DNA from: Alphaproteobacteria bacterium
GTDB lineage: Bacteria; Pseudomonadota; Alphaproteobacteria; UBA7887
DNA length: 64,000 nucleotides
NCBI GenBank assembly: GCA_965216755.1
Contig: CBDCGL010000011.1
Location: forward strand, 1,344,001 to 1,408,000
Reading direction: 5' to 3'
A model generated the notes under the pieces. The model ran no database searches and was not told the DNA's origin. It saw only the letters and a list, made by a program, of their open reading frames with translations. A program made the position numbers and the translations under genes. This document shows positions 1,844 through 16,943 of the stretch, piece by piece (positions within the stretch are counted from its first letter, which is position 1; the number at the start of each line of letters is the position of its first letter).

Positions 1844-2266
1844 CTATTGTGAGGCAAGTGGATAAAGTATCAACGCGCCATTTGGCGCGATCCAATACCA
1901 CCCGTGAGCGCCCGCATGGATCTCAGTTGGTTCACCCGCCTCGGCCATACCAAAGAAACCCGGCACGTTCGGGACCATCGGCATAGCCGGCATACCCACC
2001 ATGCCGACCATCCCCGCTTGCGGCATGGTCGGCCCCGACGGATACAGGGCCAACTGACCCGTGGTCAGGATTCGATACCATCCCGTTGACCCCAGGACAC
2101 CCCCAGCAGTGTAGCCGCGCGTCGCAGGATCCAAGCTCGATTGGCTTGCCGCAACCGTCCCCCCTGCGACCATCAAGAAAAGACACGCCAAAACTAGGCC
2201 ACCGTAAGCCTTTAGCTTGTAGCTACCGCACCTGTCCGGTGCCACCCTCGTGCCCAGCGTGTTCAC
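1844..2266 (-). CDS. Small secreted Met/Gly-rich protein with two copies of a G[WF][YF]x[IV]xxxGx[LI]xLYP motif
   Basis: Hydrophobic signal-like segment; GWYRILTTGQLALYP and GWYWIAPNGALILYP flank MPQAGMVGMVGMPAMPMVP. GTG start overlaps the stop of the regulator gene. Confidence 0.7.
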   Translation of the reverse strand: MNTLGTRVAPDRCGSYKLKAYGGLVLACLFLMVAGGTVAASQSSLDPATRGYTAGGVLGSTGWYRILTTGQLALYPSGPTMPQAGMVGMVGMPAMPMVPNVPGFFGMAEAGEPTEIHAGAHGWYWIAPNGALILYPLASQ

Positions 2267-3624
2267 GTCGAACCCGACGACTCCTCATGCAAACCATATT
2301 TTCGGATCAGACGGTACGTGTTTCGCTCACTTATTCCAAGTGTGGCCGCAACTTTTACCCTATGACCCGAGTATTTTTCCAAGAGATGCTTCAGATAATC
2401 TTGCTCTATTTCTTTCAAGCTCGGTTCGTGATCAAATGACAAGACCAACTCCTCGGCCTTCGGCGACTGCTCGGTCGACAGAACGACATGCTCTTCATGA
2501 ATGGTCGGATGTGCACCGGACAGAATTATCGCGCGCTCCACTACATTCTTCAGCTCTCGCACGTTACCCGGCCAATCATATGCCATCATTCTTTTCATGG
2601 CGCGCCGCGATACGCGCTTGTCAATCCGTCTTGAAAAATCGTGATTGCTAATGAAATGATTAACCAAGTCTTCAATGTCCTCTCGACGTTCACGCAATGG
2701 CGGTACCGTTATGACAAAGGCACTGAGTCGATAAAACAAATCTGAACGAAACCGGCCGTCCCGACTGAACTTCTCTAGATTGGCATTTGTCGCGGCAACA
2801 ATTCGAACATGCGCTGTCAGGTCCTTTGTGCCGCCGACGCGCCGGAATTGACCGGATTCAAGAACGCGCAGCAACTTTGCCTGGATGGACGAAGTGATTT
2901 CGCCGATCTCATCGAGAAAGAGCGTGCCGCCTTCGGCCCCCTCGATTAACCCTTTCTTCTGTCGATCAGCACCGGTAAAGGACCCACGCTCATGGCCGAA
3001 AAGTTCCGATTCGAACAACGTTTCCTGTAAGGTACAGCAGTCCAACGCGACAAAATTGCGATTTAGTCGCGCGCTGCGTTCGTGGATTTCGTGGGCGACA
3101 AGCTCCTTGCCGACACCGCTTTCGCCTTGGATCAAAACGGTCATATCCGACGGCGCCACAGCATCGATCAGACGATTGACCTGCTCCACCGCCGTGCTGT
3201 TGCCGACCAAAAAAGTTCGCCGACTGGTGCGCAACCGATCTTCAACAAACTGCAAATTGCGGCGCAGCGCGGCATTCTCCAAGACTCGGTCGACAACGAC
3301 TTCCAATTCTTCCAAGTTGACGGGCTTGGAGAGATAGTCGGCAACGCCCAACTGCATGGCCTTCACGGCTTTCTGCACAGACGCATATGCCGTTAATATG
3401 ATGACCGGTTGCTGCGCGACGAGATCCGAAAGGAATTCGTACCCGTCAGCATCAGGTAGTCGTGGATCAAGAACGATCAGGTGTGGCTCGTACGCTGTCA
3501 GATAGTTTTCCGCAGCCGCCCAACAATCGACGCCCTCGGTTGCATAGCCGACTTGGTTGAGTTGCTTGACAAGCAAACTATTCAGAACTTGATCGTCCTC
3601 AATGATCAATATGTTCGGCTTCAA
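2263..3624 (-). CDS. Sigma54-dependent response regulator (NtrC/AtoC family: REC-AAA+-HTH)
   Basis: ILIIEDD receiver, GESGVGKE Walker A, ESELFGHERGSFTGA, LFLDEIGE, WPGNVREL, C-terminal Fis-type HTH. Probable TTG start at 3624 with GGGAG RBS. Confidence 0.95.
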   Translation of the reverse strand: MKPNILIIEDDQVLNSLLVKQLNQVGYATEGVDCWAAAENYLTAYEPHLIVLDPRLPDADGYEFLSDLVAQQPVIILTAYASVQKAVKAMQLGVADYLSKPVNLEELEVVVDRVLENAALRRNLQFVEDRLRTSRRTFLVGNSTAVEQVNRLIDAVAPSDMTVLIQGESGVGKELVAHEIHERSARLNRNFVALDCCTLQETLFESELFGHERGSFTGADRQKKGLIEGAEGGTLFLDEIGEITSSIQAKLLRVLESGQFRRVGGTKDLTAHVRIVAATNANLEKFSRDGRFRSDLFYRLSAFVITVPPLRERREDIEDLVNHFISNHDFSRRIDKRVSRRAMKRMMAYDWPGNVRELKNVVERAIILSGAHPTIHEEHVVLSTEQSPKAEELVLSFDHEPSLKEIEQDYLKHLLEKYSGHRVKVAATLGISERNTYRLIRKYGLHEESSGST

Positions 3625-5512
3625 CGCAGGCTCCCTGATCGACAACTGCCTGATATCCGGCGCGCGGCAACCGAATCTCAAATAGGGTTCCGACGCCGAC
3701 ACCACTCCTTACCTCGATCGTGCCCCCGTAGCGCTCGATGATAGCTTTGGCAATCGAAAGGCCCAATCCGGTCCCTTTTTCACCATCTGCCCGGCGGCTG
3801 AAAAATGGATCATAAATGTGAGGAAGGTCTCCAGGCTGGATCCCACAGCCCGTATCCTCGAATATGATTTCTACGTTGTCTTGCGTCTCCGAAGTCGCGA
3901 TTCTGAGTTCGTCGCCCGGCGACATGGCGTGAAACGCGTTTTGCACAAAATTCAGGACAATCATTCGAATCTCGCTGTCGCTGCACAGTACGCGCGGTTG
4001 CCGCGGATCCAGATCAAGCTCTATGCGATGTTCATGCGACTTGGATTCAAACGACAATAGAGACACGGTGTCGCTGATCGCACGGTTGACATCGACCAGT
4101 TCCGGGGACCTGCTTGGTGGTGCGCTCAACTTCATCAAGCGCTCTGTCACTTCGATGCATTTATCGATCTCAGTATCGACAGTACTCAGATACTGACCTA
4201 TGTCATCAAGGGACTTATCTTCCCGCCCCGTTGCTCGGAGCGCCGCTTGCAGCGCCAACCTGATAGAGCTCAGCGGATTGTGGATTTCGTGCGCGACACC
4301 CGTGGCGAGTTGGTCCAATTCCTTCAACTTCTGCTCTTGGGAAATTTGCATCTCGTTTGATAGGTCGCGAATGGACTCAACGACCAGCGTCTTCGGCCGT
4401 CCCTCTTCTTCCAACATAAGTGGTGCGGCGTAAACCTGCACCCGCGACAGGGACCCGTCGTTTAGAACATGCTGGTGGATCGTCTTTACGGGTTTCCCTG
4501 TGCGCGCGATTTCAGTCAACGGACAAATGACCAATCCAGCCGGACAGGGGCTTTCGCGGCGATGACTTGACTCATAGCAGGGTATGCCGACCACGTCGGT
4601 CATATGAACGCCAAGATGGCGACAATAGGCCGAATTCGCCGTGACGATCGCGTGGTCCGAATCGATCACACGCAATGGATCTGGATTTGCTTCCAACAAT
4701 GCTTGCAGAAATTGCCCTCGCCTTTGCGATTCCCGGATACTTGTCGCCAGATTGTGTGCCATTTCGTTGAAACGGTTTTCAAGCTCGGCCATTTCGTCAC
4801 GCCCACGTACGGCGACTCGGCTATCAAGCTGTCCCGAAGACAGTTTGCGCGTCGCCGTCGCCAACTGGCGAACTGGGCGAACCACGTTGTTGCGGACAAA
4901 CCACCATCCAGCACCAACCGTCAACAACACCACGAGCGCGCCCGAACCGGTTAACATAAAGGCCAGCATACGGGCATCCCGACGCACCGGCGCGGCGTCA
5001 TAGTCGACAAAGATGACACCATTGACCGGATGCGCTTCGACCGAACCATGACACCCGATACAAGCAGGGCGGTTCCGGATCGGGTTCACGCTGCGCAACA
5101 CCTCCCGTCCCTGCGCATCAACAGTAAAAACACTGCGCGGCCGGGACGCCGTCTCCGATGCGTGACACCCGGCGCAGGCAGGATCGGTGCCGCGGTCAAA
5201 CCGTATTCCGACACGATCTCCTGACGATGCAAACCTCACTTCACCCGCCGGGTTCACAATCATGACGCCGCTAATCCCCTGCTGCTGACCGAGGCGTACG
5301 ACAATATCCCGCAATCCACTCAGGTCTCTTTTCAGCATCGCATTCTCTAGCGATGCTTGGAGCAAGCGATTGATCTGTGTTGAGGCCTCCGTGCGTTCGC
5401 GCTCCAGTTGCGCGCGATACATGCCGACAAACAGCACTAAGAAAATAAGCGACGCGGCAACCAGACCAATCGTCATAATGACGGTAAATCTACGATCTAG
5501 TCGCGATATCAA
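3599..5512 (-). CDS. Membrane sensor histidine kinase with periplasmic diheme-c domain, HAMP, PAS, HisKA and HATPase domains
   Basis: Two TM segments flank CAGCH (5162-5176) and CIGCH (5048-5062); HAMP (GRDEMAEL), Cys-rich PAS (CYESSHRRESPC..CP), AHEIHNPL H-box, DTGCGI and GTGLGL boxes. Start uncertain (ORF extends to 5587; TTG at 5512 has an RBS). Confidence 0.92.
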   Translation of the reverse strand: MISRLDRRFTVIMTIGLVAASLIFLVLFVGMYRAQLERERTEASTQINRLLQASLENAMLKRDLSGLRDIVVRLGQQQGISGVMIVNPAGEVRFASSGDRVGIRFDRGTDPACAGCHASETASRPRSVFTVDAQGREVLRSVNPIRNRPACIGCHGSVEAHPVNGVIFVDYDAAPVRRDARMLAFMLTGSGALVVLLTVGAGWWFVRNNVVRPVRQLATATRKLSSGQLDSRVAVRGRDEMAELENRFNEMAHNLATSIRESQRRGQFLQALLEANPDPLRVIDSDHAIVTANSAYCRHLGVHMTDVVGIPCYESSHRRESPCPAGLVICPLTEIARTGKPVKTIHQHVLNDGSLSRVQVYAAPLMLEEEGRPKTLVVESIRDLSNEMQISQEQKLKELDQLATGVAHEIHNPLSSIRLALQAALRATGREDKSLDDIGQYLSTVDTEIDKCIEVTERLMKLSAPPSRSPELVDVNRAISDTVSLLSFESKSHEHRIELDLDPRQPRVLCSDSEIRMIVLNFVQNAFHAMSPGDELRIATSETQDNVEIIFEDTGCGIQPGDLPHIYDPFFSRRADGEKGTGLGLSIAKAIIERYGGTIEVRSGVGVGTLFEIRLPRAGYQAVVDQGACVEAEHIDH

Positions 5513-5647
5513 CGGCGTGACCCTCAGCCAGAAACCCCTTTTGACAATGTCACAAATCGGACATTTCAATTGGGCCCAAAAAAGCACATAGTTATAAGGG
5601 TTTTTGGGACGTAACGCCAGCGCGGCGCCCTCCCAACGCGAGTCGTC

Positions 5648-6700
5648 TTATGCCAAGACTTGAAAGAGATTGAGCTTTCGTCCGGTTTCACGACATACCC
5701 AACACGTCGCGGACTCAAGAGCCTGGTCGCCCGGCATGTGAAACGGCGTACCACAGCGCGCACAGACCTGGCGCCGCAACGGCAATTGAAGCTGCGTGGG
5801 CGCGATGTCGGTCCCGATCGATATGGCGTGCTGTCTGCAAACATCCACACACAGCATACACCCACTGCATCGGTTCGCCTTCAGCCCATAGTGCGTATTG
5901 TCACCGTCACGCCGCAGAGTGATCGCGCCATGTGCGCACAAGCGCACGCAGGCGTCACAGCCCGAGCACCGTTCGCTGTCGATCTCCGGGACAAAGGGAA
6001 GTAGAGCCGTATCGCCATCCGCGAACAGAGGTGGCCTGTGCTTTGGCCGTGGCGCCTCGTCCGCGACCGTCTGTCGCTCGACGCGATCGATAAGTGTACT
6101 AACCATACCCTTCAGGAGCGAACGACGGCCGAGCCCGTTGTCGCGCCGGCGCACTTCGGCGCCGTCACGCGCCGCCCGCCACTTGCCGACGGGCAGCAAG
6201 CGAATGGCCAAAGCCGGCTGGTCCCGCGCCGACAAATACTGGTTCACGGTATCAACGACAGACTCAAGGCGCATACACGCCCCCCGCCGGCATGTGTCAC
6301 ATGGTGCCTCGGCGACCCACAACGTATAGATTCCGCGGTCGTGAAGTTGGAACAAAGCACGCATCGAAATTGCATGGACACATGGCACGACGCCTGCGCC
6401 GTCGTCGCTTGTCGCAGTATCGCAGGCGACGAACGCGACGCCTTGCCCGCGCACATCACGCATTGTTGTGGCAAATTTGGCCTCGATCGCGGATTCTGGG
6501 CATACTGCCGCGCACAGGCCGCAGCCGTCGCAACGGCCGACGTCGATCATCAAGCCATCATCGCACAACGACAAAGCGCCTTCGGGGCAGGCCTTGACAC
6601 AGGCGGTGCATGTCGCATCGACCGTACGCCCGTGGACGCATAAGTTGCCATCAATCTCGGGACATTGATCGTGCGCCGCATCCCTCGGCGAATCCGCCAT
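5648..6700 (-). CDS. Polyferredoxin / multi-[4Fe-4S] protein associated with the molybdoenzyme
   Basis: CTACVKACP, CDGCGLCAAVCP, CSGCDACVRLC, CSGCMLCVDVC plus further CxxC pairs. Confidence 0.85.
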   Translation of the reverse strand: MADSPRDAAHDQCPEIDGNLCVHGRTVDATCTACVKACPEGALSLCDDGLMIDVGRCDGCGLCAAVCPESAIEAKFATTMRDVRGQGVAFVACDTATSDDGAGVVPCVHAISMRALFQLHDRGIYTLWVAEAPCDTCRRGACMRLESVVDTVNQYLSARDQPALAIRLLPVGKWRAARDGAEVRRRDNGLGRRSLLKGMVSTLIDRVERQTVADEAPRPKHRPPLFADGDTALLPFVPEIDSERCSGCDACVRLCAHGAITLRRDGDNTHYGLKANRCSGCMLCVDVCRQHAISIGTDIAPTQLQLPLRRQVCARCGTPFHMPGDQALESATCWVCRETGRKLNLFQVLA

Positions 6701-6714
6701 TTCCAATCGACCAA

Positions 6715-7488
6715 TCACCAACTCGGCGCGGTGCCAGGTAGATAAGTTGGGCCCAATTCGCCGCAGTCTTTTGAAAATCTCTTGTTGGCGCGTAGCTGCT
6801 CGTAGTTGGGCTTGGGCTGATCAAGTGCAAGTGCGAACAATTCACGTGCGCGATGAAGATAGGCTGCAGTCGTTCCCGCCAAACCCGCGTAGAAAGGCAT
6901 TTCGCACCGCGCCATGACGCGCTCCGCGAAAGCGTCGATCCAGAGCAGGAGGTGCTGATCCAAAAACGCTGCCGCGTCTCTCACCGCCTGCAAATCGCGT
7001 CCATCCGTCAGCAACCGGCCAACAAACTGCAGTTGCAAAACCAGGTGATCATCCGCGCGACTTGCCCAGTCTTGAACACAAACACCGTGGCGCCGGTACC
7101 AAGCCCGCACTTCAAACATCGGTTGCTGACGTTCCAATCCATCTTCGTCCAGCCACACCGATTCGTAAGGGGACGCGCGGTAGCCATGCGTCAAATAGAT
7201 TTCGCCATATTCGACCGCGAGCCGATCCAGTACGTCATCACCAGGTGTATCTGGCAACGCCGCCACCGCCTGATCGAATATATCGAGTGCGGCGCGTCCC
7301 GCCGCCGTCTCCAGTCGAAGACCCAGGCTTTGGGCAAGCCCTTCTTCACGCAGCGCTGCTAGGGTCTTCGCCTCTGGCTCCTTGTCATGAAGCATGGCCA
7401 AGAGCTTGAGATCCGCGGCCACACTCGTCCGCAGTTGGTCGAGCAAATCACGACCCCCGGGCATCTCGGACGCCACGGCCGATGCCAT
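6715..7488 (-). CDS. dmsD: TorD/DmsD-family molybdoenzyme maturation chaperone
   Basis: SPYESVWL and ADDHLVLQLQF motifs, FLDQHLLLW; directly downstream of the dmsB-like gene. Confidence 0.88.
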   Translation of the reverse strand: MASAVASEMPGGRDLLDQLRTSVAADLKLLAMLHDKEPEAKTLAALREEGLAQSLGLRLETAAGRAALDIFDQAVAALPDTPGDDVLDRLAVEYGEIYLTHGYRASPYESVWLDEDGLERQQPMFEVRAWYRRHGVCVQDWASRADDHLVLQLQFVGRLLTDGRDLQAVRDAAAFLDQHLLLWIDAFAERVMARCEMPFYAGLAGTTAAYLHRARELFALALDQPKPNYEQLRANKRFSKDCGELGPTYLPGTAPSW

Positions 7489-7489
7489 T

Positions 7490-8161
7490 TCAGCCGGCAT
7501 CGACGCGGCCTTTGCTGTGCGCCACAAAAGCAATCGACGGTCTGGTTAACGCTGGATCCGCCAAATTCTTGACTTGCTGCGTCACTTTGTCCGCCGGACC
7601 CAACGCCTTAGTCTCATAGCCACCCGCTACGATCTGGTCAATCGGCCCAACATCCAGCACGCGCATCATGCAAGCCATGACGCAATAGGGTTTTCGACCC
7701 GCATCAATTTCGTCGACGCACATATTGCATTTCTTGACCAGGTTATCTTCCGGATCAAATTGCGGTGCACCATAGGGGCATGCGGCCTCGCATCGCCGAC
7801 ACCCAATGCACAGCGTCGAGTCGATATCAACGATGCCATCTTTCTTGCGCTTGAATATGGCCCCGGTCGGACATGTCGGCAAACATGCCGGTTCTGCGCA
7901 ATGGTTGCATGACATATTAACCTTGTACGCATAAACGTCCGGGAACTGGCCGCCTTCGATGTATTGCACTCGGCGAAATCGAGGCCCTGGGCCAAGACCA
8001 TTCTTGTCTTTACAAGCAATTTCGCACGCGCGGCACCCGATACAATCAACGTTGTGATGCACGAATCCGAGTTGCGTATCGGGCACGACCGGCTTGTAAA
8101 CTTCGCGCTTGCGCCTCTTGACTGCTTCTTTGACCCGTGCCTTATCGATCTGGTTCGTCAT
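7490..8161 (-). CDS. dmsB: DmsB-like four-cluster [4Fe-4S] electron-transfer subunit
   Basis: CIGCRACEIACK, SCNHCAEPACLPTCPTGA, CIGCRRCEAACPYGAPQF, KCNMC...PYCVMAC. Confidence 0.9.
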   Translation of the reverse strand: MTNQIDKARVKEAVKRRKREVYKPVVPDTQLGFVHHNVDCIGCRACEIACKDKNGLGPGPRFRRVQYIEGGQFPDVYAYKVNMSCNHCAEPACLPTCPTGAIFKRKKDGIVDIDSTLCIGCRRCEAACPYGAPQFDPEDNLVKKCNMCVDEIDAGRKPYCVMACMMRVLDVGPIDQIVAGGYETKALGPADKVTQQVKNLADPALTRPSIAFVAHSKGRVDAG

Positions 8162-8184: not shown

Positions 8185-10725
8185 TTAGTTGTCACGCCGG
8201 AAAACGTGGCCACGTGCCGTGGCAAGCTTGTCCCATCCGGGCCTGTGGGTGAGCTCTGTCTTGGACATGTTGACCAGAATCGTATTGTACGCGAACGCGC
8301 CCGCCGGACTCGGTTCGTCGGCTGTCAAGAAGTCCGGATTGCCCGAGCGGTCGACCCCTGTTTCATCGAGATCCATCCAGGCCCCTTCGTGCAGAACGAC
8401 GACGCCGGGCATGCACCTTTCGGTCACATAGGCCGGCACAACCGTGGCACCACGATCGTTCCAAACATAGACGGCGTCACCAGTCTTGATACCCAACCCC
8501 TCGGCGTCTTTCGTGTTGATCGTCACCTCTTGCTCGTAGGTCTCGCGCAACCAAGGAATGTTGTTGAAGATCGAATGGGTGCGCCACCGGGGATGCGGCG
8601 TGATCATGTGGAACGGATACTTCTCCGCTTTCGGGTGATTGAGCGACTCCCACGGCTCAATCCATTTCGGGATGTAAGGGATCGGCGCGCCAAACTGCGT
8701 CTTCTTCCAATCCGTGACCGACGCCAACTGTGTCGAGAAAATCTCAACCTTTCCTGACGGAGTCGAGAACGGTTGACCTTTCTCGACTTGATCCCGGAAC
8801 GCAACGTGTGGTTCGTCGAGCTCAAATTTGTAGACCCCACGTTTCTTGAACTCATCCCACGATATCTCGACGTGGTGGTGATGCCGTACTTTGGTCTCCC
8901 ACCACTCACTGAGATACGCTTCGTCGACAGCGTCGTCATTGTAGAAATAGTCGCGCGTGGCCTTCGGATTGAAGACGTTTCCAAATCCCAATCGGAAGCC
9001 GAGCTCGGTGAAGATCTGCAAGTCGCTTTTGCTTTCCCCCAACGGCTCAATGACTTTCGGCCGATGAATGTAGTAATGCCCCTTGTACCAAGGTAGGGCC
9101 ACGTCGTGCCGTTCGAAATGCGTGGCTACCGGTAGTAACACGTCGGCCCAAATCCCGGACGGGGTTATCGTGGAGTCTTGGCAAACCACGAGATCAAGCT
9201 TCTTTATGGCTTCGATCTCTTTGTTGATATTCGTCAACTGATTGAACCAATCGGATGCCTGCCACCAAATTGCACGGATATTCGGAATCACGCCGTCCAT
9301 TGGCCCAGGTTTTGGCCACAATCCAACATCCTCGCGCCGCACATACGGGTAGTTCAACACACAATGCGCCCACCGATCGGACTTAATCGCAGCCGCGTGC
9401 ACGTTAGCATATTGATCGTATGGGCCGGCGACGCTTTCCATATGCCAGCCCTTGCCGACACCTTCACTCGAACCGCCCAAAACACCGATGTTCCCGGTTT
9501 GCGCTTGCAGCGCCGCGGCCATACGGCTGTATTGTTCCCCATAGGCGGCGCGCCCGGGCGCCCAAGACGCCTTGAGCGCGGCTGGCTTGGTTGTGCCATA
9601 CATTTCGGCCAATTTCTTGATGTCCGCGGCGGACACACCGCAAATGGGTTCGGCCCACTCCGGTGTTTTTGGTTGACCATCATAACGGCCATAAATGTAG
9701 TCGCGGAAGTTCTCCATATTGGCCGCCCAGGGCGGCATGGTGCCCTGATCCATTCCCAAGCAGAATCTATCGATGAAATCTTGATCCTGCCAATTATTCT
9801 CAAAAATGTGGAAGGCCATGGCGGCAAGCATCGCCGCGTCTGTGTTCGGCTTGATCGGAATCCACCATGCGTCGTAGGCGGCTGCCGAGTCCGTGTACTG
9901 AGGATCGACGACGACAAATTTGCAGCCGCGTTGCTTCGCCAGCCGCATATAGTAGAACGTATTGCCGCCATGAAATGTGTAAGCCGGATTCCAGCCCCAC
10001 ATAATGATCAATTTGGAATGAGCGAACGCGTCATCCTCGTTGCCGTCTTCGATTGTTCCGAACGTCTGTAGTGAACTAAATGTTGTACCTTGATAGGATG
10101 GCACGGACCATGACACGGTGCGGCAGCCAAATATGCCGAGGAACCGACCCAGAGACCCTTCGATCTGATCCGACTTGTGCAGGGCACCCCAAGACGCACC
10201 CGCATAGGACTGATCGAGAATGGCCGTCGGGCCGTATGTATTCTTCAGGTGCAACATGCGCTCGGCGAGATAGTCAAGGGTATAGTCCCAAGACGCGCGT
10301 TTGAACTTGCCCTCACCACGTGCGCCGACCCGGATCATTGGGTAAAGCAACCGTTCCGGCGAATAAATACGCGATCGATACGATCGGCCACGCAAGCAAG
10401 CCCGCACTTGCGGCACCGCTTCCGTGTCAGTGTTAAACGCATCGCCTTGATAGGTTCCGTCGTCCGTCGACAAGCGAACGATCACATTGCCCTTTTTGTG
10501 CGCAACCAGCATATGGCGCGAACCACAGTTGTGTGCGCAGCTGGTGACAACCGTGGTGAGCTCATCATCCGTGTAATAGGGCTCATAAGCGAACGCGTCA
10601 GCCTGTTGGCTCTGTGCGGTGCTCACCAAGCCGGCCGTCGCGCCGGCGGCGGCCGATTGCAGAAAGCCCCGCCGCGAAACATTGAACGCTGATCTCAATT
10701 CATCCAGGCGATTTTGTTTAGTCAT
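8185..10725 (-). CDS. dmsA: Tat-exported DMSO-reductase-family molybdoenzyme catalytic subunit (DmsA/YnfE-like); substrate unknown
   Basis: SRRGFLQ Tat motif; N-terminal CAHNCGSRH..RACLRGR resembling E. coli DmsA CTVNCGSRC..RACLRGR; RLLYPM.RVG.RGEGKF, WGWNP, PIKPNTDAAM, ADVLLP, RWRTHS and C-terminal molybdopterin-binding domain. Confidence 0.85.
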   Translation of the reverse strand: MTKQNRLDELRSAFNVSRRGFLQSAAAGATAGLVSTAQSQQADAFAYEPYYTDDELTTVVTSCAHNCGSRHMLVAHKKGNVIVRLSTDDGTYQGDAFNTDTEAVPQVRACLRGRSYRSRIYSPERLLYPMIRVGARGEGKFKRASWDYTLDYLAERMLHLKNTYGPTAILDQSYAGASWGALHKSDQIEGSLGRFLGIFGCRTVSWSVPSYQGTTFSSLQTFGTIEDGNEDDAFAHSKLIIMWGWNPAYTFHGGNTFYYMRLAKQRGCKFVVVDPQYTDSAAAYDAWWIPIKPNTDAAMLAAMAFHIFENNWQDQDFIDRFCLGMDQGTMPPWAANMENFRDYIYGRYDGQPKTPEWAEPICGVSAADIKKLAEMYGTTKPAALKASWAPGRAAYGEQYSRMAAALQAQTGNIGVLGGSSEGVGKGWHMESVAGPYDQYANVHAAAIKSDRWAHCVLNYPYVRREDVGLWPKPGPMDGVIPNIRAIWWQASDWFNQLTNINKEIEAIKKLDLVVCQDSTITPSGIWADVLLPVATHFERHDVALPWYKGHYYIHRPKVIEPLGESKSDLQIFTELGFRLGFGNVFNPKATRDYFYNDDAVDEAYLSEWWETKVRHHHHVEISWDEFKKRGVYKFELDEPHVAFRDQVEKGQPFSTPSGKVEIFSTQLASVTDWKKTQFGAPIPYIPKWIEPWESLNHPKAEKYPFHMITPHPRWRTHSIFNNIPWLRETYEQEVTINTKDAEGLGIKTGDAVYVWNDRGATVVPAYVTERCMPGVVVLHEGAWMDLDETGVDRSGNPDFLTADEPSPAGAFAYNTILVNMSKTELTHRPGWDKLATARGHVFRRDN

Positions 10726-10795
10726 TACTGAGTTCCTGTCTGGTGTCGCCTACTGCACAACTTGTCGTTGCTATTTCCTGCCATGACGTTTGACG

Positions 10796-11596
10796 TCACT
10801 GCGCGTTGATGCGAAAGCGTGACGCCGACTCGGTCGGGCGATCGACCGCCCATTCCGGCGTTTCTTCCGGCATGTCCGGCCAAGGATGTCGCGGGTATGG
10901 ATACGATGTCGCGTACCACGCACGGCCACCATGACAGCCGTAGCAAACATCTGAGCTCTCTCTTGCCAGTTCTTCTATGGCATCTGCCTTGAGGTAGTTG
11001 ACGTTGTGCCGAACCGTACGGAACAGTTCCTCATGACACAGCTGGCATCCATTGGGTGTCGCCTCATCCTCCAGATCAACACGAACTTCTGGCCAAGGCC
11101 CCTCGACGCCGAGCATCAGTTCGTTTGGAAAACGCCCATGACACAACAAGCACGTTTCTTGAGGGACCACCGACTTACGTAAACTAAATCCAGCGTCAGC
11201 GGCGGTCGGTGGTATGGGTGCTTCTTCACGGGGATCGTGACCCAGGTGGCAGGTGTTGCATTGCAAATCCATAACCTGCGTCGCGTATGGGGTTATCAAA
11301 TGCCTCCGATGAAAAGTTTCTTGATCTCCCTGATATGTATCCAATGTCTGATACCACGCCGTTGATTCCACAGCTTCAACGCCTGCCGGCGACTCGCTTA
11401 GAACGCGGCGGTCGATAATTTCCTGGTGACAGGACAAACATTGATCGTTCGTTGCTGACTCGATTGCCGGCCGGAAATGAATTGGATCCCAGATGGCGCT
11501 CTCATAGTCGATCTCCGCGGCACTAGCACCGGACGCCGCCCACAACCCGACATACATGGCAGTCAACGGCCGCACGATGGCCATCACCTTATTCAT
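10796..11596 (-). CDS. Periplasmic pentaheme cytochrome c
   Basis: Sec signal (ASA-A) and five CxxCH motifs: CLSCH, CNTCH, CLLCH, CQLCH, CYGCH. Confidence 0.9.
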   Translation of the reverse strand: MNKVMAIVRPLTAMYVGLWAASGASAAEIDYESAIWDPIHFRPAIESATNDQCLSCHQEIIDRRVLSESPAGVEAVESTAWYQTLDTYQGDQETFHRRHLITPYATQVMDLQCNTCHLGHDPREEAPIPPTAADAGFSLRKSVVPQETCLLCHGRFPNELMLGVEGPWPEVRVDLEDEATPNGCQLCHEELFRTVRHNVNYLKADAIEELARESSDVCYGCHGGRAWYATSYPYPRHPWPDMPEETPEWAVDRPTESASRFRINAQ

Positions 11597-11967
11597 TGTT
11601 GCCCCACCACTTGTTGCGTCGCCCCACTCATGGAGGCCGTTTCTTCATTGGATATCTCGCTGTGGCTCTGGTGCCATCCACGAATGTCGTACGGTCCGGT
11701 CATGCCTGGACGTGTAAAAGGCGTGAACCAGGCCCCCTGATCTTCGAGAAAACGGAGACTATAGGGATAAGGACTGTCGACGCCTGTGAGGGCGTGGTCA
11801 TACCAAGCCCCATTCTTTTCCAACTCATGGACCACCGGCGCGTCTGCCGGCCGCTGATCTGGCTTGGTTCCAGCGACTGAAAGAGTTGTTTGGCTGGCTT
11901 GCGCGCCTACATGTCCGAGACTGGCCAGAACGACACCCGCCAGCGGCACAAGTTTCCACAGTGTCAT
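11593..11967 (-). CDS. Small secreted hypothetical protein co-transcribed with the cytochrome and molybdoenzyme
   Basis: Signal peptide MTLWKLVPLAGVVLASLGHVGAQA; aromatic core PYPYSLRFLEDQGAWFTPFTRPGMTGPYDIRGWH; stop overlaps the cytochrome start (ATGA). Confidence 0.75.
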   Translation of the reverse strand: MTLWKLVPLAGVVLASLGHVGAQASQTTLSVAGTKPDQRPADAPVVHELEKNGAWYDHALTGVDSPYPYSLRFLEDQGAWFTPFTRPGMTGPYDIRGWHQSHSEISNEETASMSGATQQVVGQQ

Positions 11968-12082
11968 GCTATTTCTCACTCTTCTTTTTCTTGCCCGCAC
12001 GCGTCGTCCCTCCCGGCTGGTAAACGCTGTCAAAGAAAATCCTGAACTCTTGGTCATCCTGCCAGTCGCTGGCCTCATCCGG

Positions 12083-12541
12083 CTAGTTTGTCACGTCGGA
12101 GTTATCCTGATCCACATTGCTCGGTCCCGCCATCGGTTGTGTGGCAGTCGGTGCCTGGCCATGCATCCACGGCATGGAGCGCGGTCCTTGTTGGCCAAAT
12201 AACAAGCCCGCCGGTGCGTAAAGCAGCAGCCCACCATCTGGCGCGACCCGAAAGAACCCGCGGGAATTGACCAGATTTGTGCTGCCGAACATGCCCAGGA
12301 TCGTGTACATCACCTCAGGCGGCACGACTTGGCTCACAGGATAAAGGACGATCCCCCCATTTGGCATAAACTGAAAGAAGCCATGGGCGTCCACCAACGA
12401 ACCAACGGCGATCGGCTGATCTGGATTAGCCGGCACAAGCGACTGACCATCTTGCGCGAGAACTTGCATCGGTTTGGCCGCCATGAATGCTGTCATGAGC
12501 AAGACGACGCCAAAACTTGTCACACGCCTAATTACAATCAT
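12083..12541 (-). CDS. Small secreted protein with two copies of the aromatic GFFxxxP[ND]GGxxLY motif
   Basis: Signal peptide ending VLA-Q; GFFQFMPNGGIVLYP and GFFRVAPDGGLLLYAP. Confidence 0.72.
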   Translation of the reverse strand: MIVIRRVTSFGVVLLMTAFMAAKPMQVLAQDGQSLVPANPDQPIAVGSLVDAHGFFQFMPNGGIVLYPVSQVVPPEVMYTILGMFGSTNLVNSRGFFRVAPDGGLLLYAPAGLLFGQQGPRSMPWMHGQAPTATQPMAGPSNVDQDNSDVTN

Positions 12542-12612
12542 TGTCTAACTCACAATGTTCCGATCGTGCCATCATGCGTGAAGGTCGCAATCGGGAAGAA
12601 AGAGGCTTCGCG

Positions 12613-12670
12613 GTGAGTGTCCGGAAAACAACTGACTCGACTTCTGTCGGCGTTCACCGGACACATACAC
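12613..12670 (-). other. Long imperfect intergenic hairpin just downstream of the Met-rich gene
   Basis: gtgtccgg (12617-12624) pairs with ccggacac (12657-12664), with inner aac/gtt and ctgac/gtcgg pairing. Confidence 0.45.
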
Positions 12671-12690
12671 CATGCTAGCGCTTTAGCGTT

Positions 12691-14088
12691 TTAGCGCGGC
12701 GGTTCCCAGTTGCGGGCTGCCATACCTGGCATACCTTGCATGCCCCACATGCCGGGCATACCCTGCATGCCCCACATTCCGGGCATACCCTGCATGCCCC
12801 ACATTCCGGGCATACCCTGCATGCCCCACATTCCGGGCATGCCCTGCATACCCCACATTCCGGGGTAGCTGGCGTACATCCCCCACATGCCGGGGTTCAT
12901 CCCCCACATACCAGGCATACCTTGCATGCCCCACATACCGGGCATGCCGTACATGCCGCCCATGCCCCACATGCCAGGGTTCATGCCCCACATACCGGGC
13001 ATACCTTGCATGCCCCACATACCGGGCATGCCGTACATACCGCGCATGCCCCACATGCCAGGCATTCCGTACATGCCGCCCATACCGGGCATGCCGTACA
13101 TGCCGCCCATGCCCCACATGCCAGGCATTCCGTACATGCCGCCCATACCGGGCATGCCGTACATGCCGCCCATGCCCCACATGCCGGGGTTCATCCCCCA
13201 CATGCCGCGCATGCCATACATGCCGGGCATTCCGTACATGCCACCCATGCCGCGCATGCCCCACATGCCGGGCATTCCGTACATGCCGCCCATGCCGGGA
13301 TAGTTCGCGTACATGCCATACATACCGCCCATACCGGGCATTCCGTACATACCGCCCATGCCCCACATGCCGGGGTTCATCCCCCACATGCCGCGCATGC
13401 CATACATGCCGGGCATTCCGTACATGCCACCCATGCCGCGCATGCCCCACATGCCGGGCATTCCGTACATGCCGCCCATGCCGGGATAGTTCGCGTACAT
13501 GCCATACATACCGCCCATACCGGGCATTCCGTACATACCGCCCATGCCGGGCATGCCGTACATGCCGCCCATACCGGGCATGCCGTACATGCCGCCCATA
13601 CCGGGCATTCCGTACATGCCGCCCATGCCCCACATGCCGGGGTTCATCCCCCACATGCCGCGCATGCCATACATGCCGGGCGTTCCGTACATGCCGCCCA
13701 TGCCGGGATAGTTCGCGTACATGCCGCCCATGCCCCACATGCCGGGGTTCATCCCCCACATGCCGCCCATGCCGGGATAGTTCGCGTACATGCCGCCCAT
13801 GCCCCACATGCCGGGATTCATCCCCCACATGCCGCGCATGCCATACATGCCGCCCATGCCCCACATGCCGGGGTTCATCCCCCACATGCCGCGCATGCCA
13901 TACATGCCGGGCATTCCGTACATGCCACCCATGCCGGGATAGTTCGCGTACATGCCGGGCATGCCTTGCATGCTCCACATGCCGGGATACATCCCCTGCA
14001 TACCTTGGCCGGCGGATGGCTGTGACATCATTAGCATCGCGCCAATGACCATCGCCGTACCGGCCACTCTCCTTAGCTGCTTCAACAT
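12691..14088 (-). CDS. Secreted methionine-rich (Gly-Met-Xaa)n repeat protein 1 (465 aa)
   Basis: GAGGAAGG RBS, Sec signal [27 protein letters not shown], then about 430 aa of [18 protein letters not shown] triplets with GMNP and ANYP interruptions. Confidence 0.85.
12720..14000. repeat. Coding tandem repeat (9-bp-based units) including a near-exact 186-bp duplication
   Basis: Recurrent catgccgggc / ccccacatg units; tagttcgcgtacatgccatac recurs at 13301 and 13487, 186 bp apart. Confidence 0.9.
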
Positions 14089-14413
14089 TTAACGAACCTT
14101 CCTCATAACAATTGTTCGGTCGGCTTAGACTTCACTCAATCCTCGAATCCCAGTTGCAAGTGCCGCCGTTCAAGGTCCGACACCGACAAATCTCGATCTT
14201 GGACCGGCGTTGCGGACAGAACATCAGCTATGCATCGTTGTTCCGTGAACCCTATCCATTTGTTCGCACTGCAACCTTTCGCCGTTTTATTGACGGCATT
14301 GAATAAAAAGATCTGTGGCTTACGCCCCGTTCTTGAGGGAACGGCCCAGTTGCTCTGTCAGAATTCCCAAGCCATGGTGGGCGCTCTGTTGCGCCCACCA
14401 TGCTGCAGTCGAC

Positions 14414-15451
14414 TTAGCCGTCTTTATCGTCGTCGGACTCACCCGACATGCCTTCCATGCCGGACATACCTTCCATGCCGGTCATGCCGGACATACCGCT
14501 CATGCCGGACATACCTTCCATGCCGGACATACCGCCCATGCCGGACATACCTTCCATGCCGGACATGCCTTCCATGCCGGTCATGCCTTCCATGCCGGTC
14601 ATTCCGGGCATCCCCGTCATACCCATTCCAGGCATGCCGTACATTCCGCCCATGCCGGGCTGTAACGCAGCCAAGTTTGCCGGATAGAGCGTGATGACGT
14701 TACCAGGGCCAACGGTGAAGTAGCCGGCGAAGACCGCGCCACCACTCATGCCTTGCATGCCGCCCATACCGGGCATGCCTTGCATGCCGCCCATACCGGG
14801 CATGCCTTGCATTCCCCACATACCGGGCATGCCTTGCATACCCCACATACCGGGCATGCCTTGCATACCCCACATGCCGGGCATGCCTTGCATTCCCCAC
14901 ATGCCGGGCATGCCTTGCATTCCCCACATACCGGGCATGCCTTGCATTCCCCACATGCCGGGCGTGCCTTGCATTCCCCACATGCCGGGCATGCCTTGCA
15001 TTCCCCACATGCCGGGATAGTTGGCATACCGTTGGCCTTGCATGCCCCACATGCCGGGGTTCATCCCCCACATGCCGGGCATACCTTGCATACCCCACAT
15101 ACCGGGATAGTTCGAATACTGTTGACCTTGCATGCCCCACATGCCGGGGTTCATCCCCCACATGCCGGGCATACCTTGCATACCCCACATGCCGGGCATA
15201 CCTTGCATACCCCACATACCGGGCATACCTTGCATACCCCACATACCGGGCATGCCTTGCATACCCCACATGCCGGGATAGTTCGAATACTGCTGACCTT
15301 GCATGCCCCACATACCGGGCATACCTTGCATACCCCATTGATTGGGCATAGTTTGCTGGCTATGTGCCGTGCTTGTCGCGCTCAGTGACGCCATCGCAAC
15401 AACGGCAACGAGGCCAACAACCCTCCCAATCTTTTTTAGCGTACTAATCAT
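14414..15451 (-). CDS. Secreted methionine-rich (Gly-Met-Xaa)n repeat protein 2 (345 aa) with aromatic motif and acidic tail
   Basis: GAGG RBS, signal peptide ending TAHS-Q, (GMQGMPGMW)n block, one GYFTVGPGNVITLYP motif, then (GMEGMS/T)n and GESDDDKDG. Confidence 0.85.
   Translation of the reverse strand: MISTLKKIGRVVGLVAVVAMASLSATSTAHSQQTMPNQWGMQGMPGMWGMQGQQYSNYPGMWGMQGMPGMWGMQGMPGMWGMQGMPGMWGMQGMPGMWGMNPGMWGMQGQQYSNYPGMWGMQGMPGMWGMNPGMWGMQGQRYANYPGMWGMQGMPGMWGMQGTPGMWGMQGMPGMWGMQGMPGMWGMQGMPGMWGMQGMPGMWGMQGMPGMWGMQGMPGMGGMQGMPGMGGMQGMSGGAVFAGYFTVGPGNVITLYPANLAALQPGMGGMYGMPGMGMTGMPGMTGMEGMTGMEGMSGMEGMSGMGGMSGMEGMSGMSGMSGMTGMEGMSGMEGMSGESDDDKDG
14445..15340. repeat. Coding tandem repeats (27-bp GMQGMPGMW units and 18-bp GMEGMS units)
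   Basis: Repeated ccttgcat(a/t)ccccacat(a/g)ccgggcat(g/a) and ccttccatgccggacat units. Confidence 0.9.
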
Positions 15452-15622
15452 TCGTACCTCTATGTCGCCGTCTCCCGTGGAGACAGCGGTCCTTTAATGT
15501 GCTGACCGAGAAAAGACGCCGCAGCACCCGGGATGAACATTTCCTAGGTACTGTGGCTCGAATTCCCACCTAACTGCTTGCCTTCCCGTTGACGCCGCTG
15601 ATTGCGGCGCCGGCTTTTTAAT

Positions 15623-15640
15623 AAGCAGATTTCGTGCCAG
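15623..15640 (-). promoter_or_regulatory. Sigma54 (-24/-12) promoter of the Met-rich protein/molybdoenzyme cluster
   Basis: Minus strand reads CTGGCACGAAATCTGCTT, with GG-N10-GC spacing and TGGCACG matching consensus, about 170 bp upstream of 15451. Confidence 0.85.
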
Positions 15641-15656
15641 CCTTAGCGTGCAAGCG

Positions 15657-15669
15657 TAAGTATTTGAAA
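15657..15669 (-). promoter_or_regulatory. Putative IHF site
   Basis: TTTCAAATACTTA versus consensus WATCAANNNNTTR (one mismatch), between the promoter and the upstream palindrome. Confidence 0.5.
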
Positions 15670-15716
15670 TTTTGTATGAATTCGACTTCGGCCACGTTCA
15701 AGGGCCTGTCTCTAAC

Positions 15717-15731
15717 CTGCCAAATTGGCAG
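15717..15731. promoter_or_regulatory. Putative upstream activator (enhancer) site
   Basis: Perfect palindrome CTGCCAA-A-TTGGCAG about 80 bp upstream of the -24 element. Confidence 0.55.
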
Positions 15732-15869
15732 ACAAATCGGAGACCGAAATTAAGAATCTCTTGTTTTCAGCAGCTTGGAACCTGACATAATGTCAGCGTC
15801 GCGCCGAATGCAATGCGTTATCTGTGGCGAGGGCTCGGCGCGGCGTCAGTCCAGTGCGCGCCGACGGCG

Positions 15870-16943
15870 TCAATTGGCATCGACAAATCCGCGTTTGATG
15901 GTGTCCGTCGTCAACCCTGTTGCTTGGGCCGCGTCTGACACTTGCTGCCGTGTCTTTGGGTCCAACGGAATGCCGTTCGCCAGGCGCTCTGTTTTGGTCC
16001 GCCGCTCAACCATGCCCGGCAACAATACCTCAGCGTCATCTGACACAGGCGGTGAAGCCGTAATAAAATCAACGAAGCGATCCATATCGCCGCCCATGGC
16101 AGCCGTACCGGCCAAGCGCTCTGGATCAATCAAGATTGCCAACAGATTGTTGATTGGTCGGTCAGCGCTTGGATTGTCCGGATGGCCCGTGCCGCCGCCG
16201 ACCATGGCACCCGCAAATAATTCCACAAATATCGACAGCCCATGACCCTTGTGCCCGGCTGCGGTCGTCAGTGCACCCGGTGGATCCGTATAGAACGCTT
16301 CCGGATTTCGACTCGGTTGGCCCCGGTTGTCGATGATCGCCCCTTCAGGTAGCCGCGCGCCGCGGTTGCGGGCCACGCGGATTTTGCCTGCTGCGATGGC
16401 GCCGGTCGACATGTCGTGAATGATGGGGTCGTGATCCGGACGCGGCACACCCAGTGCAATCGGATTCACCGACAGGCGACGGTCGCTGCCGCCGTAGGGC
16501 GCAACTTGAATGCCATAGCCAGTTGTATTGACGAAATGAAGCGAGGCGAATCCCGCGACCGCGGCCTGTTCGGCCCAAGCTCCGATACGGCCCATATGGC
16601 CACTGTTGCGCACGCCAATCACTGAAACGCCATGCCGACGCGCCCGATCAATGCCGAGGTCGATCGCCTCCTTCGCGATCACTTGGCCAAATCCTTGCCG
16701 ACCATCAACAGTAACAGTGGCACCGCCGTCCGCAACAATCTCGATATGCTGATTTGCGGTCAGCTTGCCATCTTTCATCAAGCCGACATAAGGCGCGACG
16801 CGGATCACACCATGGCTGTCATGGCCCATCAGATTCGACTCGATCAAATGGAGCCCGACAAGTCCGGCCTCCTCTGAGGAGCAACCGGCACACTCGAAAA
16901 TTCGACAAACCAGATCCTGGAGGGGTTCTGCGGCAACGTTCAT
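15870..16943 (-). CDS. Ldh2/Mdh2-family oxidoreductase (malate/lactate/ureidoglycolate dehydrogenase, YbiC/HcxB-like)
   Basis: NLMGHDSHGVIR, DGRQGFGQV, RNSGHMGRIG, GHKGHGL motifs; ATG at 16943 with AAGGA RBS. Confidence 0.9.
   Translation of the reverse strand: MNVAAEPLQDLVCRIFECAGCSSEEAGLVGLHLIESNLMGHDSHGVIRVAPYVGLMKDGKLTANQHIEIVADGGATVTVDGRQGFGQVIAKEAIDLGIDRARRHGVSVIGVRNSGHMGRIGAWAEQAAVAGFASLHFVNTTGYGIQVAPYGGSDRRLSVNPIALGVPRPDHDPIIHDMSTGAIAAGKIRVARNRGARLPEGAIIDNRGQPSRNPEAFYTDPPGALTTAAGHKGHGLSIFVELFAGAMVGGGTGHPDNPSADRPINNLLAILIDPERLAGTAAMGGDMDRFVDFITASPPVSDDAEVLLPGMVERRTKTERLANGIPLDPKTRQQVSDAAQATGLTTDTIKRGFVDAN

Follow-up and report, generated by a model that had tools for sequence, protein, structure and literature searches.

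What does a bacterium gain from a secreted protein in which Met occupies almost every third position? This question is raised by an open reading frame (ORF), here named P1, in a stretch of 64,000 nucleotides (the window) from an Alphaproteobacteria bacterium of the UBA7887 lineage (assembly GCA_965216755.1, contig CBDCGL010000011.1, positions 1,344,001 to 1,408,000). P1 has a paralog next door, P2, and both genes lie on the minus strand upstream of genes for a small secreted protein (sm161), a five-heme cytochrome c and a molybdenum (Mo) enzyme similar to DmsA, an arrangement that we term the cassette and that recurs across Alpha-, Beta- and Gammaproteobacteria. From this context we propose, with middling confidence, that the P1/P2 family would serve as a periplasmic Met/Met-sulfoxide redox buffer kept reduced by the Mo enzyme of the cassette, in analogy to the MrpX-MsrP system and with unrelated proteins.

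The two Gly-Met genes, with positions counted within the window, are:
14414-15451, minus strand: P2, a 345-aa secreted Gly-Met protein, immediately upstream of P1
12691-14088, minus strand: P1, a 465-aa secreted Gly-Met-X protein, the second gene of the minus-strand array

The composition of P1 is dominated by Gly (156 of 465 residues, 33.5%) and Met (136, 29.2%), followed by Pro (43), Tyr (37), Trp (29), Asn (14) and Gln, Arg and Ala (12 each). There is one Glu, in the C-terminal NWEPPR, and no Cys, His, Asp or Phe among the 465 residues; in total, 66 residues are aromatic and 14 (3%) are charged. The dipeptide GM occurs 130 times and is followed by Tyr (31), Trp (28), Pro (24), Gly (22), Gln, Arg or Asn (8 each) or Ala (1). 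Read as Gly-X-Y, the protein falls into 13 runs of 3-23 triplets that cover 372 of its residues. Position X is Met in 123 of the 124 triplets and position Y is most often Tyr (28), Trp (26), Pro (24) or Gly (22), with Trp and Tyr together making up 54. The register is broken 12 times, by a lone Pro (seven times), by ANYP (four times) and by one longer stretch. These counts, together with the signal-type N-terminus, bear out what a sequence-only reading of P1 had described: a secreted, extremely Met-rich and Gly-X-Y-periodic protein with about 30% Met, Met fixed at the second position of an interrupted register, abundant Trp and Tyr, no Cys and a single acidic residue. That reading missed the paralog, the operon and the wider family.

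The DNA of P1 is itself repetitive, with tandem arrays of period 9, 27 and 69 from 12721 to 13984 (Tandem Repeats Finder), and three of the six frames over the span are nearly open: frame -2 has no stops, frame +2 has one, and that of the Gly-Met protein contains none besides the stop that ends it. Since a 9/27-base repeat opens other frames too, the openness of a frame is by itself no proof that it is the one translated. We accept the Gly-Met frame as real based on its ATG preceded by GAGGAAGG, a combination found in this frame alone among those of the span; its signal-type N-terminus (by eye, K/R residues and a hydrophobic stretch, then SAG followed by Q, as in Sec-type signals); its use of all four synonymous Gly codons (GGC 104, GGT 28, GGA 15, GGG 9) in the same proportions as in neighboring genes; and the existence of secreted Gly-Met homologs in other genomes, where they occupy the corresponding place in the operon. 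P1 is thus a real protein of the Gly-Met frame with predicted export. We also compared P1 with short-read contigs from four runs (two samples of one study). These match the flanks and many pieces of the repeat with zero differing letters, and none of them bridges the repeat, so that the exact repeat number of P1 rests on one assembly.

P2, whose ATG is preceded by AGAGG, consists of 28% Gly and 24% Met (83 Met), with 80 GM dipeptides and one His, and is 94% identical to P1 over about 100 aa. Its longest unbroken Gly-X-Y run extends over 31 triplets. Outside the repeat it has a single motif of the hairpin type, GYFTVGPGNVITLYPAN, and its tail is acidic (GME/GMS). Right after the P2 stop codon, at 14360-14400 on the minus strand, lies a perfect 13-bp GC-rich inverted repeat (CCATGGTGGGCGC ... 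GCGCCCACCATGG) with no T-run behind it, which may form a stem-loop in the mRNA.

The order P2-P1-sm152-sm161-cytochrome-DmsA is maintained on one strand with short gaps, and the DmsA-like gene is followed by that of a second subunit:
12083-12541, minus strand: sm152, a 152-aa secreted protein with hairpin-type motifs GFFQFMPNGGIVLYP and GFFRVAPDGGLLLYA and a short helix between them
11593-12078, minus strand: sm161, a small secreted protein of an unnamed family and a marker of the cassette, with its likely true start at Met38 (11967)
10796-11596, minus strand: five-heme cytochrome c, 266 aa, periplasmic (Pfam Cytochrome_C7, 41.6 bits)
8185-10725, minus strand: DmsA/YnfE-like molybdopterin S-/N-oxide reductase, the Tat-exported catalytic subunit, 846 aa
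7490-8161, minus strand: DmsB-like four-cluster ferredoxin subunit, 223 aa (TIGR02951, 190.5 bits against a cut-off of 214.1; Pfam Fer4_11)

By sequence, the cassette enzyme is of the S-/N-oxide reductase type. Its nearest solved structures are dimethyl sulfoxide (DMSO) and trimethylamine N-oxide (TMAO) reductases, the best being the DorA DMSO reductase (1eu1, E 1.5e-70), and it scores 607 bits against TIGR02166, under the cut-off of 777.7. Residues C63, C67, H71, C110, Y174 and S210 are invariant in 90 of 90 clade members; Ser210 aligns with the DorA residue that we take to be the Mo ligand, and the Tyr with what is presumably an active-site Tyr of DorA. The first Fe-S motif reads C-x3-C-x3-H-x38-C (residues 63-110), with the His present in all 90 members at a position where E. 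coli DmsA has Cys. Based on this His and on the scores under the DmsA/YnfE cut-offs, we regard the enzyme as representing a separate clade.

The cytochrome has CxxCH motifs at residues 53, 113, 149, 184 and 218, no hydrophobic anchor besides its signal peptide and no relative in the PDB. For sm161 there was no match in Pfam, NCBIfam or the PDB, and in the ESM Atlas it matched only unnamed "hypothetical protein" clusters. It is nonetheless a sizeable family, with 50 homologs in the loci that we fetched and 278 clusters matched by its profile at E<=1e-3 among 1.84 billion representatives. Its structure model consists of short helices (mean pLDDT 71.6). As sm161 is fused to the five-heme cytochrome at two loci (L171:979-2058 and L191:6850-7971) and lies behind a one-heme cytochrome c domain at a third (L129:816-1631), it is probably a cytochrome partner.

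To what extent is the association of Gly-Met proteins with this enzyme a general one? Protein searches with P1 were of little use here, probably owing in part to bias filters. Among 5.8 billion clusters there were 10 matches, which included neither P1 nor P2, and the six that we examined resemble P1 in composition only (a collagen-like protein of phage type, tails of Gly-Met-Pro that look eukaryotic, and a CusB-like adaptor). Against 60 related genomes, P1 gave only weak matches of 26-30% identity in two genomes outside its own, a search for which its composition is unsuited and which is no proof of absence. We therefore searched one genome per species for a DNA pattern of eight consecutive Gly-Met-X codons, which occurred at at least 118 loci. 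Many of the matches are short Gly-Met runs in ORFs about 560 aa long; judging from this length and the position of the run at the tail, they are putative GroEL C-terminal tails that would be unrelated to the cassette. Among the matches listed, 23 loci have sm161, the cytochrome or the reductase (44-78% identity) beside the Gly-Met ORF. Considering only the strong Gly-Met runs among the matches listed, 16 of 23 loci have one of these three genes within 8 kb, and at two further strong-run loci (Paracoccus and Phyllobacteriaceae) a whole-genome search located the reductase just past the fetched stretch. Carriers of the cassette are not confined to sulfur oxidizers and include Candidatus Thiodiazotropha, Sedimenticola, a tubeworm symbiont, Thiothrix caldifontis, Thiobacillus, Hyphomicrobium, Rhodobacterales and Paracoccus.

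The reverse test supported the association as well. A metagenome scan with the reductase yielded 575 relatives, from which the best 80 (74-84% identity) were selected by reductase similarity only. A Gly-Met ORF lies upstream on the same strand in 55 of these 80 loci, 14 are undecidable and 11 have none, while homologs of the cytochrome (49-72% identity) adjoin the reductase in 79, one of which (L130) has only a short piece, on the other strand. As 30 of the 55 metagenome ORFs run into a contig end, the Gly-Met repeat evidently breaks assemblies. The flanks of the 10 long loci had nothing in common beyond the cassette, and among the kin of the window the cassette is patchy: the sm161 profile matched 1 of 22 genomes of the same family and 0 of 38 other genomes of the same class. 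Together with identities of 70-84% across three proteobacterial classes, the patchiness and unshared flanks suggest lateral spread.

Several carriers depart from the simple arrangement. Two DmsA-like copies (70-75% identity to that of the window) are present in one Thiodiazotropha genome (L060) and in the tubeworm symbiont (L058), the latter pair 5 kb apart on one contig. In the cultured strain of Thiothrix caldifontis (L104; C12:116161-118703) the DmsA-like gene is in two pieces with a TAA between them, representing either a pseudogene or a sequencing error. At three gammaproteobacterial loci (L058:3700-4455; L079:6823-7590, minus strand; L021:5571-6374, minus strand) the cassette lies beside a gene for a secreted protein of 251-267 aa with repeated G-W-x-x-x...D-G-S motifs, which has no counterpart in the window.

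We then compared P1 and P2 with 36 complete Gly-Met ORFs from other loci. All 36, like P1 and P2, have signal-type N-termini, with Gly contents of 21-45% and Met contents of 16-30%. The residue following Gly-Met, on the other hand, is mostly Ser or Gly elsewhere, with Tyr, Trp and Pro used only in the window and in its closest relatives (L127, L128 and L135), and the other 36 members have 0-22 aromatics per protein vs 66 in P1. Since the family keeps Gly-Met and not the third residue, we consider Met to be the likely functional group. The Trp/Tyr array, which the sequence-only reading had suggested could carry holes or electrons, is a trait of this lineage that is not conserved in the family. 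P1 itself has the hallmarks of the family in its Sec-type N-terminus, its Gly-Met-X register, its position upstream of sm161, the cytochrome and the DmsA-like gene, and its WEPPR terminus (about 10 of the 38 members have similar W-x-P-P ends, as does L128, a close relative, with SWEPP), and P2 in its hairpin motif. What is particular to this window is the combination of the aromatic Gly-Met-Tyr/Trp/Pro variant, four paralogs in one array, an MsrP neighbor and a two-heme sensor.

The two further paralogs are sm152 and a protein at the far end of the array, o140, which is followed by the MsrP gene:
1844-2266, minus strand: o140, a secreted protein of 140 aa in which a Met-rich linker accompanies two hairpin-type motifs
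693-1709, minus strand: MsrP, periplasmic protein-methionine-sulfoxide reductase catalytic subunit (NF003767, 420 bits against a cut-off of 207)

A hidden Markov model of the sm152 family matches o140 at E 2.7e-31. A motif of 15 residues, exemplified by GFFQFMPNGGIVLYP, is present in four copies in the window, in sm152 and o140, with none elsewhere in the genome and 0 occurrences in 20 shuffles, and 29 further copies are found across 19 other loci, usually within Gly-Met proteins. AlphaFold2 predicted each copy as a beta-hairpin with modest confidence; the model of sm152 comprises two beta-hairpins and a helix (mean pLDDT 55, 35 residues at 70-90) and had no match in the PDB at E<=0.001 (Foldseek). 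Homologs of sm152 were found in the closest metagenome relatives only, and its profile matched 0 of 60 related genomes. Elsewhere, one cytochrome c ends in two hairpin-type motifs (L060:6530-7369, plus strand), and a membrane-anchored cytochrome c has its two domains linked by Gly-Met repeats (L047:2946-4103, minus strand). Gly-Met linkers and the hairpin motif thus appear to be reused in periplasmic cytochromes.

MsrP is encoded 134 bp downstream of o140 and 11 kb downstream of P1 in the same array. By our arithmetic, three MsrP copies in 5 Mb would place one within about 11 kb by chance roughly 1 time in 100. The pairing of o140 with MsrP, in which a Met-rich paralog carrying the motif lies directly upstream of a Met-sulfoxide reductase, adds a second such pair to the window, and we treat this adjacency as a lead and not as proof.

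The array also encodes its putative regulators, and a promoter-like site lies ahead of its first Gly-Met gene:
15624-15639, minus strand: sigma-54-type promoter-like site TGGCACGAAATCTGCT, 173 bp upstream of P2, the first Gly-Met gene
3599-5587, minus strand: sensor histidine kinase, a periplasmic domain with two CxxCH motifs followed by HAMP-PAS-HisKA-HATPase
2263-3705, minus strand: NtrC-type sigma-54-dependent response regulator (Sigma54_activat, 219.7 bits), with its start probably near 3624 (about 2290-3624)

Within the window, the pattern is matched exactly at TGGCACGAAATCTGCT and nowhere else. Near matches are no more frequent than expected by chance (9 observed vs 10.5 expected), and the case for the site consequently rests on its position. 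The 810 kb of other loci contain 11 sigma-54-type sites, 6 of which are located 32-111 bp upstream of sm161, there the first cassette gene, and sigma-54 activators flank 6 of the 10 long loci. The regulator of the window is 58% identical over 447 aa to that of the tubeworm symbiont (L058), and its TGA stop overlaps the GTG start of o140 (GTGA), coupling o140 to it translationally. The heme-c motifs of the kinase are CAGCH and CIGCH at residues about 140-190, and at least one CxxCH is kept in 41 of 41 aligned N-terminal domains of homologous kinases, which would suit a redox or oxidant signal. A scan of the minus strand from 10600 to 15900, including the stretch from P2 to the cytochrome, found no terminator-like or sigma-70 promoter site, and we expect that the cassette is co-transcribed from the sigma-54 promoter.

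The buffer reading brings these observations together, based on the facts that the only invariant side chain of the family is a thioether, that its operon partner is an S-oxide reductase and that there is precedent for the chemistry. P1, P2, sm152 and o140 would be disordered periplasmic proteins with thioether side chains as their working parts, Gly spacing the 136 Met of P1 and 83 of P2 at every third residue. The polymers would be co-expressed from the sigma-54 promoter, under the control of the heme-c kinase, with the cytochrome, sm161 and the DmsA/DmsB-type reductase. Periplasmic oxidants would turn the exposed Met into Met sulfoxide, and the Mo enzyme, here probably together with the adjacent MsrP, would reduce it again with electrons delivered via the cytochrome, making the polymer a renewable oxidant sink or redox buffer. 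What we observe directly is the gene, its composition, the conserved cassette and active-site residues of the S-oxide-reductase type; from these we deduce export, disorder, the redox cycle of Met, transcription as one unit and the path of the electrons. The proposal of the sequence-only reading that Met oxidation matters fits this context, in which the array encodes both MsrP and a cassette with an S-oxide reductase. Regarding precedent, R. sphaeroides DorA and C. concisus BisA are described as periplasmic enzymes from the DMSO reductase family which reduce protein-bound Met sulfoxide, BisA with a soluble cytochrome c (PMC10653797). In Azospira, hypochlorite is reported to be scavenged by a periplasmic peptide that is rich in Met and that a Mo enzyme recycles (PMC4436054).

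Several observations weigh against the buffer reading. Of the 66 decidable metagenome loci, 11 lack a same-strand Gly-Met ORF (three with 300-1000 bp of upstream sequence and eight with at least 1 kb; one of the eight, L135, has such an ORF on the opposite strand at the contig end), and therefore some genomes must have a functioning enzyme with no polymer to act on, its main substrate perhaps being a different one. No membrane subunit for quinol oxidation is encoded in the cassette, and the gene content is silent on the direction of electron flow. The M-x-x-M spacing also resembles what we take to be Cu(I)-binding Met motifs. The proximity of MsrP is peculiar to the window, as no MsrP match was present in the 80 metagenome loci or the 118 listed genome loci, and the genome has three MsrP copies above the equivalog cut-off. 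An MsrQ-type Ferric_reduct gene was not found in this genome, which is 99.8% complete. Finally, by description only, MrpX is 44% charged (PMC4436054) vs 14 charged residues among the 465 of P1.

If the enzyme has another main substrate, the polymer could be a shield: the reductase would respire a small S-/N-oxide or oxyanion (DMSO, TMAO, free Met sulfoxide, chlorate or selenate), and the polymer would soak up by-products or stray oxidants and be recycled by MsrP or another enzyme. The cassettes without a Gly-Met ORF, the MsrP gene in the array of the window, and the fact that three Thiodiazotropha genomes have no close DmsA-type gene besides that of the cassette are in keeping with this scheme. 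MrpX is described as protecting perchlorate reducers from by-products of a Mo reductase (PMC4436054), and in a lucinid symbiont a DMSO-reductase-like gene is reported to be among the most highly expressed and was read as respiratory by its authors (PMC6872982). At L060, moreover, the Gly-Met gene and the cytochrome are separated by an ORF of 268 aa that looks by eye like a regulator of the Crp/FNR type and, if so, hints at anaerobic respiration. Nevertheless, MsrP is not linked to the cassette elsewhere, and neither the annotated genes of the window nor the 74 flank proteins of the 10 long loci include a chlorite dismutase or another oxyanion-handling gene. We consider a shield of this kind unlikely, although deserving of attention.

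A periplasmic sponge for soft metals, in which the repeated M-x-x-M would bind Cu(I), Ag(I) or another such thiophilic ion, strikes us as rather doubtful. The spacing of Met presumably matches that of Met-only Cu(I) motifs, the Met-rich domains of CueO reportedly recruit Cu(I), and Trp could make a cation-pi contact, as is said of CusF; in addition, one of the low-complexity matches to P1 (P0009) is the CusB-like adaptor, which has Gly-Met-rich ends. The genomic context, however, does not point to metals. No copper or silver gene occurs in the cassette or among the 74 flank proteins of the 10 loci, and the copper genes of this genome (a multicopper oxidase, two CusF-domain proteins and PCuAC) lie apart from it, at C11:2.885-2.898 Mb. 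P1 lies outside that locus, lacks His (P2 has one) and has no Pfam or NCBIfam copper-family match. The neighboring resistance-nodulation-division (RND) pump scores 485 bits as a multidrug permease vs 280 bits as CusA/CzcA, both under the cut-off, and the regulatory pair of heme-c kinase and sigma-54 activator is not of the CusRS/CueR type.

It is also conceivable, if quite improbable, that the polymer acts as an entropic or chaperone-like element that holds or tethers the reductase, the cytochrome or unfolded clients, perhaps as a gel or condensate cross-linked by hairpins. The Gly/Met tails of GroEL are reported to populate polyproline II and to bind clients (PMC12571646). The predicted beta-hairpins, the cytochromes c at L047 and L060 with their Gly-Met linkers and terminal hairpin motifs, respectively, and the 66 aromatics and 12 Arg of P1, which could act as stickers, agree with such a role. 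Against these stand the lack of evidence for any client, the few aromatics in most family members, and the fact that the invariance of Met, in preference to Ser or Ala, is left unexplained.

A variant of the redox proposal, which we regard as a long shot, is that the polymer is a periplasmic battery, a store of protein-bound thioether/sulfoxide with about 100 two-electron sites per chain. The DmsAB-like enzyme and five-heme cytochrome would then run in either direction. Cells at oxic-anoxic interfaces, such as sulfur oxidizers and animal symbionts, would charge Met to the sulfoxide with oxidants or high-potential acceptors and respire the stored sulfoxide during anoxia, and in the Trp/Tyr-rich variant of the window, access to the store could in addition be tuned by hole-hopping or self-association.

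A structural role as a triple helix of the collagen kind or a polyglycine-II bundle, two forms that the sequence-only reading had suggested, now appears very improbable. Both proteins pass the Pfam Collagen model (PF01391; P1 81.9 and P2 99.1 bits against a cut-off of 27.2), with unbroken Gly-X-Y runs of up to 23 and 31 triplets, respectively, and Gly/Met stretches are reported to favor polyproline II (PMC12571646). We attribute the Pfam score of P1 to its Gly periodicity only. The scores against NCBIfam models of collagen-like adhesins are far under their cut-offs (73.7 vs 500 and 63.6 vs 325). Collagens are characterized by long unbroken Gly-X-Y tracts with Pro- or charge-rich X and Y positions, which are not found in P1: its register is broken 12 times, X is Met with no Pro, and Y is aromatic in 54 and Gly in 22 of 124 triplets, residues that host-guest studies are said to have found destabilizing for triple helices. 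There is also no flanking trimerization domain. Lastly, we give scarcely any credence to P1 being an assembly artifact of a simple repeat or a wrong frame, for although a second frame over the span is fully open, no independent contig crosses the repeat and P1 itself was not found in the collection of 5.8 billion proteins, P1 has a start codon, ribosome-binding site, signal peptide, synonymous Gly codon variation and a paralog next door, its repeat pieces recur at 100% in other runs, and the 36 complete homologous ORFs have signal-type N-termini at the same operon position in other assemblies.

Should the buffer reading be correct, many Proteobacteria, including free-living sulfur oxidizers and the symbionts of lucinid clams and tubeworms, would have a dedicated Met/Met-sulfoxide cycle powered by the respiratory chain on a polymer of up to 136 Met. 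The principle of MrpX-MsrP would then apply to a second enzyme family, unrelated to the first, and to a far larger buffer capacity. The lucinid symbiont with the highly expressed DMSO-reductase-like gene is reported to express aerobic oxidases as well, and the cassette may explain that expression, the identity of the gene with the cassette enzyme being a candidate one only (PMC6872982). Searches of the literature on Met-rich periplasmic proteins, MrpX, DMSO reductase, Gly-Met repeats and several carrier genera found no paper that describes the family or the cassette, and DMSO is not mentioned in PMC6461927. Owing to the few Lys and Arg and the broken short-read assemblies, tryptic proteomics and metagenome annotation would tend to miss such polymers. 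The aromatic-rich form in the window, with its four paralogs and adjacent MsrP, offers a natural comparison for the role of the third residue.

The array further includes two genes downstream of the reductase subunits:
6715-7533, minus strand: TorD/DmsD-type Tat-proofreading chaperone (Nitrate_red_del, 81 bits; NCBIfam TorD model, 70 bits, under the cut-off)
5648-6721, minus strand: NapF-like polyferredoxin, 357 aa, without signal peptide or membrane segment

The polyferredoxin is probably a cytoplasmic maturation factor. The remainder of the window encodes cobalamin synthesis, the RND pump and unrelated genes. Elsewhere in the genome, at C11:26255-26944 (L207:6255-6947), is a 230-aa protein with 17% Met, MGMM-type repeats and an SRRHFL N-terminus, a Met-rich protein of another kind than P1. 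Its neighbors are two cytochromes c, a two-component system of the OmpR type and an ABC transporter that has a YHS domain.

How does this system compare with those already known? Bacterial collagen-like proteins (PF01391; Scl and Lcl) share with P1 the Gly at every third residue and a passing Pfam score, and differ from it in the features noted above, namely the broken register of P1, its Met at X and aromatics or Gly at Y, and its lack of a trimerization or anchoring domain. The Gly-Met tails of GroEL also have Met at every third residue, with partial polyproline II reported (PMC12571646), although these tails are cytoplasmic, about 13 residues long and borne by a folded chaperonin, whereas P1 would be a free-standing periplasmic polymer of about 437 residues. 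Turning to the enzyme, the catalytic and Fe-S subunits match best, among NCBIfam models, those of E. coli DmsABC/YnfEFGH, which has a TorD/DmsD-type chaperone in common with the window, although the window lacks the DmsC/YnfH anchor and has the soluble five-heme cytochrome and sm161 instead. DorA and BisA/BisB are likewise Tat-exported S-oxide reductases with a Mo-bis(pyranopterin guanine dinucleotide) cofactor and a periplasmic cytochrome c as feeder (PMC10653797). Like DmsAB, the enzyme of the window possesses a DmsB-like subunit and an Fe-S motif at its N-terminus, neither of which is present in DorA, TorA and BisA; its cytochrome has five hemes, and no dedicated Met-rich partner is described for DorA or BisA.

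The closest parallel is MrpX with YedY1/YedZ1 (MsrPQ) of Azospira suillum PS, in which a Met-rich periplasmic polypeptide with a signal sequence is encoded beside a periplasmic Mo Met-sulfoxide reductase (PMC4436054). Going by its description, MrpX is small, with 20% Met and 44% charged residues (PMC4436054), whereas P1 has 465 residues in strict Gly-Met-X register, of which 3% are charged, and at 29.2% exceeds the Met content of the MrpX type. The partner enzyme is also different, belonging to the sulfite oxidase family (MsrP) in the case of MrpX and to the DMSO reductase family (DmsAB-like, with a five-heme cytochrome) here, as is the regulation, by SigF/NrsF in the former and putatively by a heme-c kinase and sigma-54 activator in the latter. 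For MrpX, sacrificial oxidation by hypochlorite followed by re-reduction is reported to have been shown (PMC4436054), and it is this cycle that we suggest may operate, on a far larger polymer, in the P1/P2 family.

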